DNA of 64,000 nucleotides, from the NCBI RefSeq assembly GCF_058153355.1, contig NZ_CM177019.1. One strand, 5' to 3'. A program made the translations under genes and the position numbers. How positions within the stretch are numbered: position 1 is the stretch's first letter; each line of letters opens with the position of its first letter. The notes beneath the pieces were generated by a model. It was given only the letters and a program-made list of their open reading frames with translations. It searched no databases and was not told the origin of the DNA. This document shows positions 20,582 to 48,229 of the stretch, piece by piece.

Positions 20582-22007
20582 TAATGCCAGTCAGTTAAGC
20601 AACTGACTGGCTCTTTTTCGGGGCTGTGGGGTATTTCCAGGGCCTCTCCTTTACCACTCTCGGGAAGGCCCTTTCCCTTCTTGTCGGTAATTTCACAAGT
20701 TGTCCCATACTTGCAAGATCGCGCATCAGCTCCGGTATACGTCCCGGTGAAGCGCCCTGCAATGTCATCAGCATTCTCATCACCATTCCGCATGATTCTG
20801 AGAAACTCAGTTGATTCGGCCAGTAACCTTTCAGATGTTCCGCCATTTTAATCATCTGATATCTCACCAGATTATAAGCCAGTAAGACACCCCACAGCTC
20901 TTGCTCCACAAGCTCCGGCTTTTTACTTCTCAGCGTCAGCCTGCTCAGTTGCATCGTCTGTTTTATCTCCCTGTATCCCAGTTCGATTTCCCAGCGATGA
21001 CTGTACAGATCCGCCATTTCTCCTCCGGGGAAGCGCATGGCGTCCGTCATCGACGTCAGCAGATGGCAGACTTTTCCTTTGCGCGTCACGGTCAGCAGGC
21101 GGGCTGTCACTTCATTTCCCAGTCCCGGCCACTTTTTTCGTGCCTGCGGGCTGGTTTTCAGCTTCACCAGATGATCGCCTTTACCCAGTTTTCTGATCTC
21201 TTCATATTGCGCTCCCTTTCTGAGAGGTATCATCCAGTGGCGGTGTTCTCCCGCCAGGCTCCAGGCATTTAACAGTCCCAGTGAGTAATAACCTTTATCC
21301 ATTAACGTCAGAGTGTTATCGCCGGTTTGTTCTATAAGTTGCTCAGCAAGCTCATTTTCGCTGTTCTTCATCGTGCCGAAGGCTGCAGCCGTCAGCAGAT
21401 GGCTGGTCAGTTCCATCTGGCAGACCATTTTGACCTGCGGGTAGAGCGCCGGGTTCCCGGCATGTGTCTGGCGGGGGAAGGCTGCATCGTTCTCTGGTGT
21501 ATCCGGTGTGCGCCAGAACACACCATCGATGGCCAGCAGGGTCAGGCCGCACCAGTGCGGATGCGGCGTGGCGTTATGCCAGAGCTGCGCTGTTTTCGTG
21601 AACACGCGGCGGACAGCCTCACTTCCCAGGCGCTGGCGGGCCTGAATAACGGCACTGGGGGCAACGAAGGGGCGATTGCCCGGCAGCATGATGTCCAGGC
21701 GATTCACAATCTGGTGAAGAGGTTCTTTACGCTCAAGCGCCATGCCAACAATACACCAGACCATCATTTCGAGGGGAAGACGGCGCTTGCGTAGCGTTAC
21801 AGTACCTGATTCGGCAAGGCAACGAGAGATGAGTTCGGGGTCGAGGTAATCCCCCAGAGAAGTCAGTGGGTTACGCAGAGAATCGTAACGGGATACCAGA
21901 TCAAGAGCCTGTCCAATGTGCATAAAAAAATCCGGAAACAAGTGAGCGTTTCCGGATTCTTACACAGCCACTGGATCGGTCAACTGATCCTTAACTGATC
22001 GGCATTA
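20582..22007 (-). mobile_element. IS4 insertion sequence, complete (1426 bp)
   Basis: Imperfect terminal inverted repeats taatgccagtcagttaagc (left) and ccttaactgatcggcatta (right); single transposase ORF; flanked by a 12-bp direct repeat; length matches IS4. Confidence 0.9.
20595..21923 (-). CDS. insG: IS4 transposase (InsG-like, DDE family)
   Basis: Canonical start [32 protein letters not shown] inside ORF-track frame 20595-21941; 442 aa. Confidence 0.9.
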
Positions 22008-36367: not shown

Positions 36368-37234
36368 CTATAGCCTTCCTCTAGCACCGCCTGTGTTCGA
36401 ACGAGTTCGGCGGTGGAAAAACAGCAGATCGACACGAAACCAGTTGTCATCAATGCGTAACCTTCGCTGCCGACCAACAAAGGCAAAATCATCCCCAAGT
36501 TCCAGCATTAAATCCATCAGGTGATTGATCAGCGCCTCCTCAAAATCGGATTCTGAGTATTCATCTTTCAATTCCAGAAATTCGAGCACAAAGGGATCGC
36601 GTATCGCCTGTTGCGGAAGAATATGCGTCTCGGCAGGAGCGTGTTGTTGCAGCATGGCTGATTTGTCATGTGACAGTAGTGTTCGCTCATAAAATTGGGT
36701 CGCAATTTGCCGCTCTAGCTGGCGGACAGACCAACCACAGCGGAGCGCCTCTTTTTCATAAAAGCTGCGGGCGTCAGCGTTTTTAACGGAAAGTAGACGG
36801 ACGTAGGTGGACCAAGGCAGGGGGAACGATTTGGCAGACAGCGTCTGCCAAATCTTTGCCGATGGGAATTCTGCAGACGGTGTCTGCGGAATTCCCAATG
36901 GTGTTAATTCGCCAGACACTGTCTGGCGAATTTCAACATGTTGAAAAAAGAGGTAAAAAAGCCTCATTTGGCGTAAGTTTTTTGCAGAGAACCCACGCTT
37001 ATACCTTAGACTTAAATCCTTTGATAGTCGCTTGATTAGCTGCGCACCATACGCAGCTCTGGCCTCGCCACCTTGTTCAAATTCGACAATTCGTCGGCCA
37101 ATTTCCCAGTACGTCGCGGTCATCAGCGCGTTAACGCTACGTACCGTTTCCGTTCGGGCGCTATCGACCAGATGAATAATGCCGTCGTGGATTTGCTGGT
37201 AGCCTGCTGTGGTTCCTTCTGAGAGCGATTCCAT
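36368..37234 (-). pseudogene. yhcG: yhcG-like DUF1016 / PD-(D/E)XK nuclease-family gene, apparently truncated near the 3' end
   Basis: 288-aa ORF MESLSEGTTAGYQQIHDGIIHLVDSARTE... runs to ...RIDDNWFRVDLLFFHRR then gives 12 unrelated residues and a stop; the following ExK nuclease motif is absent; K-12 YhcG recalled as about 375 aa. Confidence 0.5.
36830..36932. repeat. Three tandem perfect palindromes (CAGAC-N3-GTCTG cores) inside the yhcG coding sequence
   Basis: tttggcagacagcgtctgccaaa (36830-36852), gaattctgcagacggtgtctgcggaattc (36866-36894), aattcgccagacactgtctggcgaatt (36906-36932); each encodes I-x-Q-T-x-S-x-E/K on the minus strand. Confidence 0.7.
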
Positions 37235-37417
37235 TATCTTTCCCTTTATATGGCGCAGTGTTGAATAATGGAATCAGCTATACGCCGGGCATCTGCCGGT
37301 AACAATCCAGATGTGCGTATTACATTGGTTTTCTTCAGATTATGCGAGGCGCTTTCCAGAACGAAAGGAGAATTTCAGCGCCGACTCTTTTCTGAGGAGG
37401 CGGCGCTGGGACAGAGC

Positions 37418-45009: not shown

Positions 45010-47346
45010 ATGAAGCAAATTCGTCTGCTGGCGCAGTATTATGTTGACCTGATGATGAAGTTAGGTCTGGTGCGCTTCTCAATGTTGCTGGCGCTGGCCC
45101 TCGTCGTTCTTGCCATTGTGGTACAAATGGCAGTGACCATGGTGCTGCATGGTCAGGTCGAAAGCATTGATGTTATTCGTTCTATCTTCTTTGGTTTGCT
45201 GATTACGCCGTGGGCGGTCTACTTTCTATCGGTGGTCGTTGAGCAATTGGAGGAGTCACGACAACGTCTGTCACGGCTGGTGCAAAAACTGGAGGAGATG
45301 CGCGAGCGCGATTTGAGCCTCAACGTTCAGTTAAAAGATAATATTGCCCAGCTAAATCAGGAAATTGCCGTTCGTGAAAAAGCGGAAGCAGAACTGCAGG
45401 AAACCTTCGGCCAACTGAAAATTGAAATTAAAGAGCGCGAAGAGACACAAATTCAGCTCGAGCAGCAATCCTCATTCTTACGTTCCTTCCTTGATGCTTC
45501 ACCCGACCTGGTTTTTTATCGTAACGAAGATAAAGAGTTTTCCGGCTGTAACCGCGCGATGGAGCTGCTGACCGGAAAAAGCGAAAAACAACTGGTTCAT
45601 TTAAAACCTGCTGATGTTTACTCGCCGGAAGCTGCCGCGAAAGTTATTGAAACCGATGAAAAAGTATTTCGTCATAATGTGTCTCTGACCTATGAACAGT
45701 GGTTGGATTATCCCGACGGACGCAAAGCCTGCTTTGAAATCCGTAAAGTGCCGTACTATGACCGCGTGGGTAAACGTCACGGTTTAATGGGTTTTGGTCG
45801 CGACATTACCGAGCGTAAGCGGTATCAGGATGCGCTTGAACGCGCCAGCCGCGACAAAACGACGTTTATCTCCACCATCAGTCACGAATTGCGTACACCG
45901 CTGAACGGTATCGTCGGCCTGAGCCGCATTTTGCTGGATACTGAACTTACCGCTGAGCAGGAAAAATATCTCAAAACAATCCATGTTTCGGCCGTCACGC
46001 TGGGGAATATCTTCAACGATATTATTGACATGGATAAGATGGAGCGGCGCAAGGTCCAGCTTGATAATCAGCCAGTTGATTTCACCAGCTTCCTTGCCGA
46101 TCTGGAAAATCTCTCCGCATTGCAGGCGCAACAGAAAGGGTTGCGCTTTAATCTGGAACCGACGCTGCCATTACCGCATCAGGTCATTACTGATGGGACG
46201 CGTTTACGGCAGATCCTGTGGAACCTCATCAGTAACGCCGTCAAATTTACCCAGCAGGGCCAGGTTACCGTGCGCGTGCGCTACGATGAAGGCGATATGC
46301 TGCATTTTGAAGTGGAAGACTCTGGTATCGGCATTCCGCAGGATGAGCTGGATAAAATCTTCGCCATGTATTACCAGGTGAAAGACAGTCATGGCGGTAA
46401 ACCTGCCACTGGCACCGGTATTGGTCTGGCCGTTTCTCGTCGTCTGGCGAAAAATATGGGCGGCGATATTACGGTTACCAGCGAACAGGGCAAAGGTTCA
46501 ACCTTTACGTTGACGATCCACGCACCGTCGGTAGCAGAAGAGGTTGATGATGCGTTTGATGAAGACGATATGCCTTTACCGGCGCTGAATGTGCTGCTGG
46601 TGGAAGACATTGAACTGAACGTGATTGTCGCACGCTCTGTGCTGGAAAAATTAGGTAACAGCGTTGATGTCGCCATGACCGGCAAGGCGGCGCTGGAGAT
46701 GTTTAAACCGGGCGAATACGACCTGGTGTTGCTGGATATTCAGTTGCCAGATATGACCGGGCTGGATATCTCTCGTGAACTGACGAAGCGTTATCCGCGC
46801 GAGGATTTACCGCCGCTGGTGGCCTTAACCGCTAACGTGCTGAAAGACAAACAAGAGTACCTCAATGCTGGAATGGATGATGTGCTGAGTAAGCCGCTTT
46901 CTGTTCCGGCGCTAACCGCGATGATCAAGAAATTCTGGGATACCCAGGATGATGAGGAGAGTACGGTGACGACAGAAGAGAACAGTAAATCAGAAGCATT
47001 GCTCGATATTCCCATGCTGGAACAGTATCTCGAACTTGTAGGACCGAAGCTGATCACCGATGGGTTAGCGGTGTTTGAGAAGATGATGCCGGGATATGTC
47101 AGCGTGCTGGAGTCGAATCTGACGGCGCAGGATAAAAAAGGCATTGTTGAGGAAGGACATAAAATTAAAGGTGCGGCGGGGTCAGTGGGGTTACGCCATC
47201 TGCAACAGCTGGGTCAGCAAATTCAGTCTCCTGACCTTCCAGCCTGGGAAGATAACGTCGGTGAATGGATTGAAGAGATGAAAGAAGAGTGGCGTCACGA
47301 CGTAGAAGTACTGAAAGCGTGGGTGGCAAAAGCTACTAAAAAATGA
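45010..47346 (+). CDS. arcB: Aerobic respiration control sensor kinase ArcB (tripartite hybrid kinase)
   Basis: 778-aa ORF with two TM helices, PAS, HisKA (SHELRTPLNGI), receiver and HPt domains. Confidence 0.95.
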   Translation: MKQIRLLAQYYVDLMMKLGLVRFSMLLALALVVLAIVVQMAVTMVLHGQVESIDVIRSIFFGLLITPWAVYFLSVVVEQLEESRQRLSRLVQKLEEMRERDLSLNVQLKDNIAQLNQEIAVREKAEAELQETFGQLKIEIKEREETQIQLEQQSSFLRSFLDASPDLVFYRNEDKEFSGCNRAMELLTGKSEKQLVHLKPADVYSPEAAAKVIETDEKVFRHNVSLTYEQWLDYPDGRKACFEIRKVPYYDRVGKRHGLMGFGRDITERKRYQDALERASRDKTTFISTISHELRTPLNGIVGLSRILLDTELTAEQEKYLKTIHVSAVTLGNIFNDIIDMDKMERRKVQLDNQPVDFTSFLADLENLSALQAQQKGLRFNLEPTLPLPHQVITDGTRLRQILWNLISNAVKFTQQGQVTVRVRYDEGDMLHFEVEDSGIGIPQDELDKIFAMYYQVKDSHGGKPATGTGIGLAVSRRLAKNMGGDITVTSEQGKGSTFTLTIHAPSVAEEVDDAFDEDDMPLPALNVLLVEDIELNVIVARSVLEKLGNSVDVAMTGKAALEMFKPGEYDLVLLDIQLPDMTGLDISRELTKRYPREDLPPLVALTANVLKDKQEYLNAGMDDVLSKPLSVPALTAMIKKFWDTQDDEESTVTTEENSKSEALLDIPMLEQYLELVGPKLITDGLAVFEKMMPGYVSVLESNLTAQDKKGIVEEGHKIKGAAGSVGLRHLQQLGQQIQSPDLPAWEDNVGEWIEEMKEEWRHDVEVLKAWVAKATKK

Positions 47347-47458
47347 CCCCGGCTAGACCGGGGTGCGCGAATACTGCGCCAACACCAGGGAAATCTTGGC
47401 TGCGCCGTAAATTATTATGATGAGTTACAAGGGCACAGCACTGTTTTTCAGGCCGCAC
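47338..47458 (-). ncRNA. arcZ: ArcZ small RNA (RyhA/SraH), Hfq-dependent
   Basis: Minus strand reads gtgcggcctgaaaaacagtgctgtgcccttgtaactcatcataataatttacggcgcagccaagatttccctggtgttggcgcagtattcgcgcaccccggtctagccggggtcatttttt, matching the ArcZ sequence as recalled; terminator hairpin and U-run overlap the last arcB codons. Confidence 0.85.
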
Positions 47459-47575
47459 GCAGTTAAGATAGCAAAACTTAAATGATTTGTTACATGAATC
47501 AGTTAAATGTGTGATGCGTAGCATTTTTATTAAAAAAATTAATGTGTTTCAGTCAATTGCGAAAGGATGATCACA

Positions 47576-48229
47576 ATGAAGAAAATTGGCGTAATTCTGA
47601 GCGGATGCGGCGTCTATGACGGTTCTGAAATTCATGAAGCGGTGTTGACGTTGTTAGCTATTTCACGCAGCGGTGCGCAGGCGGTCTGCTTTGCACCGGA
47701 TAAGCAGCAGGTTGATGTTATCAACCATTTAACTGGCGAAGCGATGACGGAAACGCGCAATGTGCTGATTGAAGCGGCACGAATAACGCGCGGTGAAATC
47801 CGTCCTCTGGCTCAGGCCGATGCCGCTGAACTGGATGCGTTGATTGTGCCGGGGGGGTTTGGCGCGGCGAAGAATTTAAGCAATTTTGCCAGTCTTGGTA
47901 GCGAATGCACCGTTGACCGTGAATTAAAGGCGCTGGCACAAGCGATGCATCAGGCCGGAAAACCGCTTGGTTTTATGTGTATTGCCCCGGCGATGCTGCC
48001 GAAAATTTTCGATTTCCCGCTGCGTTTGACCATCGGTACTGATATCGATACCGCAGAAGTGCTGGAAGAGATGGGCGCGGAGCATGTGCCGTGTCCTGTC
48101 GATGATATCGTGGTTGATGAAGACAATAAGATTGTCACCACCCCGGCATATATGCTTGCGCAGAACATTGCAGAAGCGGCGAGCGGCATTGATAAGCTGG
48201 TTTCCCGCGTGCTGGTTCTGACTGAATGA
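47576..48229 (+). CDS. elbB: DJ-1/PfpI-family protein ElbB (YhbL)
   Basis: Canonical start [26 protein letters not shown] inside ORF-track frame 47567-48229; 217 aa. Confidence 0.85.

Follow-up and report, generated by a model that had tools for sequence, protein, structure and literature searches.

The minus strand at 47338..47458 of the analyzed stretch of DNA almost certainly carries arcZ of Escherichia coli (formerly sraH or ryhA; probability of approximately 97%), the gene of a small regulatory RNA that is convergent with arcB and overlaps its 3' end. The stretch, referred to here as the window, comprises 64,000 nucleotides of contig NZ_CM177019.1 in RefSeq assembly GCF_058153355.1. ArcZ is one of three sRNA activators of RpoS and ties ArcB/ArcA oxygen sensing to the general stress response, motility, mutagenesis and biofilm formation. 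As far as the sequence tells, both the gene and its arrangement with arcB are already known and the copy in the window does not depart from the reference.

Identity of arcZ and its genomic context

The preliminary description of this DNA reported an ArcZ-matching sequence on the minus strand and named a covariance-model scan as one way of checking it. When the entire 64-kb window was scanned against all 4227 Rfam families, ArcZ (RF00081) was the sole family above its gathering score; its match scored 120.8 bits (E = 4.1e-27), well above the cut-off of 66. The match is located at 47351..47458 on the minus strand and covers model positions 1-106 of 106, i.e., it is full-length and not truncated. 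The complete 121-nt minus-strand sequence, GTGCGGCCTGAAAAACAGTGCTGTGCCCTTGTAACTCATCATAATAATTTACGGCGCAGCCAAGATTTCCCTGGTGTTGGCGCAGTATTCGCGCACCCCGGTCTAGCCGGGGTCATTTTTT, starts with GTGCGGCCTG and ends with GGGGTCATTTTTT, and its alignment with the curated arcZ gene (b4450) of E. coli K-12 MG1655 revealed identity at 121 of 121 nucleotides. The K-12 record lists b4450 as 'small regulatory RNA ArcZ' at 3350577..3350697, to which the interval delineated in the preliminary description corresponds exactly. Collectively, the full-length match to RF00081 and the 121/121 identity to K-12 confirm the ArcZ sequence on the minus strand, and the defining features of the ArcZ family that can be read from sequence (covariance-model score, identity to the type member, core next to an RNase E motif, terminator with a U-tail, position relative to arcB) were found in the window copy.

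By sequence comparison, the window is a segment of the E. coli chromosome. With a 301-bp query centered on this locus, matches were obtained in 5416 of the 5426 complete E. coli genomes, with at least 99% identity in 4871 of these. The gene is placed between arcB, encoded on the plus strand, and elbB, with the same arcB-arcZ-elbB synteny as in K-12. The window aligns collinearly with K-12 in the opposite orientation, with ~97% identity. Elsewhere in the window, three differences from K-12 stand out: mdh and degS are separated by an IS4-type insertion of 1426 bp (20582..22007), ~7.1 kb of K-12 sequence (gltF, yhcA, yhcD, yhcE::IS5 and yhcF) is absent, with the junction at 37362..37415, and yhcG is truncated (36368..37234).

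The preliminary description also held that arcZ is worth annotating because a track of open reading frames (ORFs) cannot show it, and this is borne out by RefSeq genomes annotated with PGAP (e.g., SMS-3-5), which give only arcB and elbB at this locus. The curated K-12 record does list arcZ, which is missing from the annotation produced automatically in RefSeq for other strains of E. coli; hence, the gene track of the window strain would miss it as well. Recognizing arcZ here is of value for annotation rather than discovery, and the regulator missed by such a track overlaps the arcB stop codon.

Upstream of arcZ, the promoter scan called no consensus sigma-70 promoter. The probable promoter recognized by eye (Table 1) matches the consensus at 8 of 12 positions, which is below the scan threshold, and is identical to its counterpart in K-12. 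Across the entire arcB-elbB spacer, there is a single difference from K-12, at window position 47521 (-63 from the transcription start), where the window and SMS-3-5 have C and K-12 has G; out to -62, the sequence is identical to that of K-12. Two silent or near-silent differences from K-12 are found in the arcB tail region and none inside the ArcZ RNA. In published work, arcZ is repressed by phosphorylated ArcA (PMC11331407, PMC4152358). A 16-mer search allowing up to 3 mismatches yielded no match to an ArcA box near arcZ. The direct repeat TGTTA-N6-TGTTA has four 3-mismatch matches in the AT-rich promoter region (-76..-19), against an expectation of about one per 150 bp, and no match with 2 or fewer mismatches in this region.

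The terminator, the overlap with arcB and the predicted processing of the transcript

Table 1. Coordinates of the features assigned to the arcB-arcZ locus, numbered from the first nucleotide of the window.
Feature	Coordinates	Strand	Basis
arcB, sensor histidine kinase, 778 aa, convergent partner	45010..47346	+	ORF list; RefSeq annotation of identical DNA
arcZ primary transcript, 121 nt, from start G (47458) to end of U-run (47338)	47338..47458	-	RF00081 match and K-12 identity
Probable sigma-70 promoter: -35 GTAACA (47493..47488), -10 TATCTT (47470..47465), 17-nt spacer	47465..47493	-	By eye
Precursor 5' stem-loop (GCUGUGCC ... GGCGCAGC; RNA positions 20-27 with 53-60)	47399..47439	-	Rfam consensus structure
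RNase E cleavage motif, AG↓AUU and GA↓UUU	47391..47396	-	Motif by sequence; exact cut inferred
Predicted processed, active 56-nt 3' species (UUUCCCUGGUGUUGG...UCAUUUUUU)	47338..47393	-	Last 56 nt mapped; 56-nt product from PMC11331407
Conserved target-pairing core, CCCUGGUGUUGGCGCA	47375..47390	-	Sequence; named as conserved sequence in PMC11331407
Rho-independent terminator hairpin	47346..47364	-	Terminator scan, MFE fold, pairing in 12 genera
U6 tail of the terminator	47338..47343	-	Plus strand: last two arcB Lys codons (AAA AAA); Hfq binding from literature (PMC11331407)
Overlap of arcZ 3' end and arcB ORF, 9 nt, Lys-Lys-stop, AAAAAATGA	47338..47346	Both	K-12 equivalent 3350689..3350697

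The arcZ terminator is the only terminator-like site in the region 47200..47700, where shuffled sequences average 0.5, and it was called on the minus strand only, with 8 pairs, 6 of them G-C. The MFE fold of arcZ also forms the terminator hairpin (z = -2.7 versus shuffles). A terminator of this kind with a U-tail at the 3' end is characteristic of sRNAs that depend on Hfq. The stem, CCCCGG/CCGGGG, consists of six G+C pairs at 47347..47363, directly 3' of the arcB stop, and an optional outer A-U pair (47364/47346) would take in one base of the stop codon. The hairpin string quoted in the preliminary description, ccccggtctagccggggtc, is present on the minus strand at 47363..47345, followed by T6 at 47343..47338. 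The arcB gene ends with ...KATKK-TGA, the stop codon occupying 47344..47346. Accordingly, of the earlier statement that the hairpin and the U-run both overlap the final arcB codons, the part concerning the U-run and the 'UCA' preceding it stands, whereas the body of the hairpin does not lie over these codons, its stem being situated just outside the ORF.

The arrangement of arcB and arcZ, which had been described as a known one in which the 2 genes regulate each other, is that of K-12: the genes are convergent and their 3' ends overlap by 9 nt. The K-12 arcB coding sequence begins at 3350689 on the strand opposite to arcZ, giving the identical 9-nt overlap, and the reciprocal regulation has been described in the literature (PMC11331407, PMC4152358, PMC4281340). 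According to the literature, arcZ is situated downstream of arcB on the opposite strand, with an overlap of usually about ten bases and with exceptions, e.g., in Pectobacterium (PMC11331407), and the pairing between ArcZ and arcB involves the 3' untranslated region (UTR) and, in addition, 6 coding nucleotides upstream of the stop codon of arcB (PMC4281340). The overlap matters for the engineering of either gene; owing to it, a mutation of the arcZ -10 promoter element has been used in place of a deletion (PMC3937726).

Given that the hairpin is palindromic and located directly after the arcB stop codon, it could alternatively represent a terminator of arcB only, with the similarity to ArcZ being that of a decayed or inactive copy in the window strain; naturally inactive ArcZ alleles do occur in some species, e.g., in Dickeya solani IPO2222 (PMC11331407). 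We consider this explanation highly improbable, because the T run follows the hairpin on the minus strand only, the plus strand having GCGCGAATAC with no terminator called, and because the arcZ sequence in the window is identical, at 121 of 121 nucleotides, to the experimentally active K-12 allele, has the same probable -35 and -10 elements and matches the covariance model over its full length. The possibility that the terminator is bidirectional and acts on arcB in addition to arcZ was also rejected, the plus strand being devoid of a U-run.

On the plus strand, the sequence after the hairpin is GCGCGAAUAC rather than a U-run, and the terminator scan called no terminator on this strand between arcB and elbB. 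Lacking an intrinsic terminator, arcB probably gives rise to transcripts that run antisense through arcZ. If true, such read-through would result in complementarity to ArcZ extending far beyond the 9 shared coding nucleotides, in agreement with the published speculation that the arcB mRNA serves as an antisense RNA against ArcZ (PMC11331407).

In K-12, the primary ArcZ transcript is 121 nt long and its RNase E-processed form, which is Hfq dependent, is 56 nt long (PMC11331407). The last 56 nt of the window copy begin at GA↓UUU, fitting the RNase E consensus R-N↓W-U-U, which, along with the cleavage, was described by Chao et al. 2017 as summarized in PMC11331407. The target-pairing core, CCCUGGUGUUGGCGCA, stands immediately after the RNase E motifs AGAUU and GAUUU at 47396..47391. 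The precursor 5' stem-loop would be lost on processing and is variable between genera.

Conservation of arcZ across Enterobacterales and the C-terminus of ArcB

One genome per prokaryotic species was scanned for the exact core plus the GCGC stem, which yielded 13 loci. The loci in Chloroflexi and Hymenobacter are chance matches, without arcB or a terminator nearby. In all 11 of the other Enterobacterales loci (Enterobacter, Leclercia, Buttiauxella, Serratia, Providencia, Proteus, Pantoea, Tatumella, Brenneria and two further Enterobacterales), which were retrieved by the core itself, an arcB homologue adjoins the core in convergent orientation; in 8 of the 11, the opposite flank carries a clear homologue of elbB, with 57-83% identity. 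The 3' halves of ArcZ align at 87% mean column identity and the terminator stem is 100% paired in 12 genera, including the window; in Providencia and Proteus, two of the stem pairs are A-U instead of G-C, with both bases of the pair altered, and G-U variants are found at others. The 5' halves of the orthologues could not be aligned, and the Rfam gathering score is reached by only 3 of the 11, in agreement with published descriptions of ArcZ as conserved in its processed 3' portion and variable in its 5' portion (PMC11331407).

The possibility that the interval encodes a small protein is extremely improbable: a 62-aa minus-strand ORF spanning arcZ (47336..47524) is present in the mechanical ORF list, but transcription of arcZ starts 66 nt downstream of the ATG of this ORF (47524), no Pfam family matches the ORF, which is also unannotated in K-12 and SMS-3-5, loop indels of 1-3 nt across genera would shift any of its frames, and the conserved part is invariant at every position, third codon positions included, which argues for constraint at the RNA rather than the protein level, so that the ORF was ruled out as a coding gene.

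Nine of the 12 sequences, that of the window among them, have an overlap of 9-11 nt between arcZ and arcB; in these, the stop codon of arcB directly adjoins the hairpin and the last two residues of ArcB are Lys-Lys, encoded by AAA AAA. In Pantoea and Tatumella, the arcB stop is located 8-13 nt beyond the U-run and there is no overlap, and in Brenneria the overlap is 2 nt; these exceptions agree with the published exception of Pectobacterium (PMC11331407). The C-termini of ArcB in the sequences where the overlap is absent or near-absent are DK, KR and GE (Pantoea, Tatumella, Brenneria).

The strand opposite to the ArcB Lys-Lys-stop (9-11 nt) corresponds to the ArcZ terminator and its Hfq-binding U-tail. 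Among the 12 sequences, ArcB ends in Lys-Lys, opposite the ArcZ U-tail, where the genes overlap and has a different C-terminus elsewhere, which suggests a possible dual constraint on this stretch. Tentatively, and with somewhat less than even confidence, it may be the small RNA, and not the protein, that dictates the last two residues of ArcB. If true, a convergent sRNA terminator would constrain both the C-terminal dipeptide of a protein and its codon choice, and the extent of the overlap might tune the mutual repression of ArcZ and arcB. The coincidence of Lys-Lys with the U-tail is only a mildly new angle at the arcZ locus.

Regulation by ArcZ and comparison with known systems

The mechanism outlined here is that of published work on the identical sequence in K-12 and Salmonella (PMC11331407, PMC4152358, PMC3937726, PMC4281340), to which the present analysis adds the identity, coordinates, structure elements and arrangement of the window copy. 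The gene would be transcribed from a weak sigma-70 promoter located a short distance upstream, on which phosphorylated ArcA would act as a repressor at low oxygen, and would give rise to the 121-nt primary RNA ending at the G+C hairpin and U-run. Transcription of arcZ has been reported to peak in the aerobic stationary phase. Hfq would bind ArcZ, and a single RNase E cut beside the conserved core would yield the stable 56-nt 3' fragment, the exposed CCCUGGUGUUGGCGCA of which would pair with target mRNAs. ArcZ would open the inhibitory hairpin in the rpoS leader, leading to activation of translation, and would repress targets such as mutS, flhDC and tpx.

Given the convergent orientation of arcZ and the final 9 nt that it has in common with the arcB ORF, ArcZ would also act in cis as an antisense RNA against the 3' end and 3' UTR of the arcB mRNA and lower the amount of this mRNA, so that ArcB/ArcA and ArcZ would form a mutual-repression loop. 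According to the accounts given in PMC11331407, PMC4152358 and PMC4281340, ArcA-P represses arcZ while ArcZ lowers arcB mRNA; for the arcB loop, these accounts are reviews citing Mandin and Gottesman 2010.

Pairing between ArcZ and the rpoS leader has been established experimentally in K-12 (PMC4152358). With RNAduplex, which ignores intramolecular structure and Hfq, the duplex of the ArcZ seed with the K-12 rpoS leader has an energy of -20.0 kcal/mol, compared to a shuffle mean of -20.2, and the energy obtained for the 56-nt ArcZ with the same crude method is no better than that of shuffles.

The closest counterpart of the window copy is the K-12 ArcZ (SraH/RyhA, b4450, RF00081), with which it has in common the 121 nt, the flanks, the 9-nt overlap, the terminator, the RNase E motif and the core. 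With the ArcZ orthologues of other Enterobacterales (Salmonella, Klebsiella, Erwinia, Dickeya, Photorhabdus and others), it shares the 3' half, the core, the terminator with the U-run and the position convergent with arcB. In Klebsiella, ArcZ has been reported to be regulated by CRP rather than by ArcAB (PMC11322559). Outside of the family, the pairs GadY/gadX and McaS/abgR resemble ArcZ/arcB in that the small RNA is convergent with its neighbor and complementary to the 3' end or 3' UTR of the latter (PMC4281340). The outcomes are different, with GadY stabilizing the partner mRNA and McaS being without effect on abgR (PMC4281340), whereas ArcZ lowers arcB mRNA. ArcZ also acts mainly in trans through Hfq (PMC4281340, PMC4152358).

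The 3′ end of arcB and the ArcZ U-tail

Where the convergent sRNA gene arcZ overlaps arcB, in 9 of 12 genera (loci L006-L018 of our cross-species scan and window positions 47338..47346), ArcB terminates in Lys-Lys, the AAA AAA codons of which, read on the opposite strand, are the U-tail of ArcZ. ArcB ends in DK in Pantoea, KR in Tatumella and GE in Brenneria, and in these genera arcZ overlaps arcB little or not at all. No intrinsic terminator was called on the plus strand between the arcB stop codon and elbB (47347..47576), and the U-run of the ArcZ terminator hairpin is present on the minus strand only. Therefore, arcB transcripts may read across arcZ in the antisense direction, possibly continuing into elbB-mtgA.

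A search of complete E. coli genomes recovered 5,472 places matching the arcZ region, one of them on a plasmid record; some genomes contain two such places, and no match was found in 10 of the 5,426 genomes.

Gene content differences from E. coli K-12

Comparison with K-12 MG1655 revealed a stretch of 1,426 bp between mdh and degS (20582..22007) that is absent from K-12 and is classified as an IS4-type insertion sequence because it contains an ORF with Nterm_IS4 and DDE_Tnp_1 domains (see table). Conversely, approximately 7.1 kb of K-12 (3360618..3367699), containing gltF, yhcA, yhcD, yhcE::IS5 and yhcF, has no counterpart in the window, where yhcG comes almost straight after gltD. The yhcG gene itself lacks, at position 36408, approximately 250 bp of K-12 sequence (3368653..3368904), and the match to the YhcG_C PDDEXK nuclease domain ends at profile position 71 of 157; the yhcG of this strain is likely to be a pseudogene.

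Window features at the sites of difference from K-12
Feature	Window position	Strand	Remarks
448-aa ORF	20595..21941	-	Pfam Nterm_IS4 and DDE_Tnp_1; inside the 1,426-bp stretch
yhcG	36368..37234	-	288 aa only
Junction of the ~7.1-kb absence	37362..37415		Beside the gltD stop

The region upstream of arcZ

In the alignment, a single base sets the arcB-elbB spacer apart from that of K-12: position 47521, which precedes the arcZ start by 63 nt, is C in the window and in strain SMS-3-5 and G in K-12. A possible CRP site has its TCACA half at -56 to -52, and its left half, which is weak, includes this position; activation of arcZ by CRP has been shown in Klebsiella only (PMC11322559).
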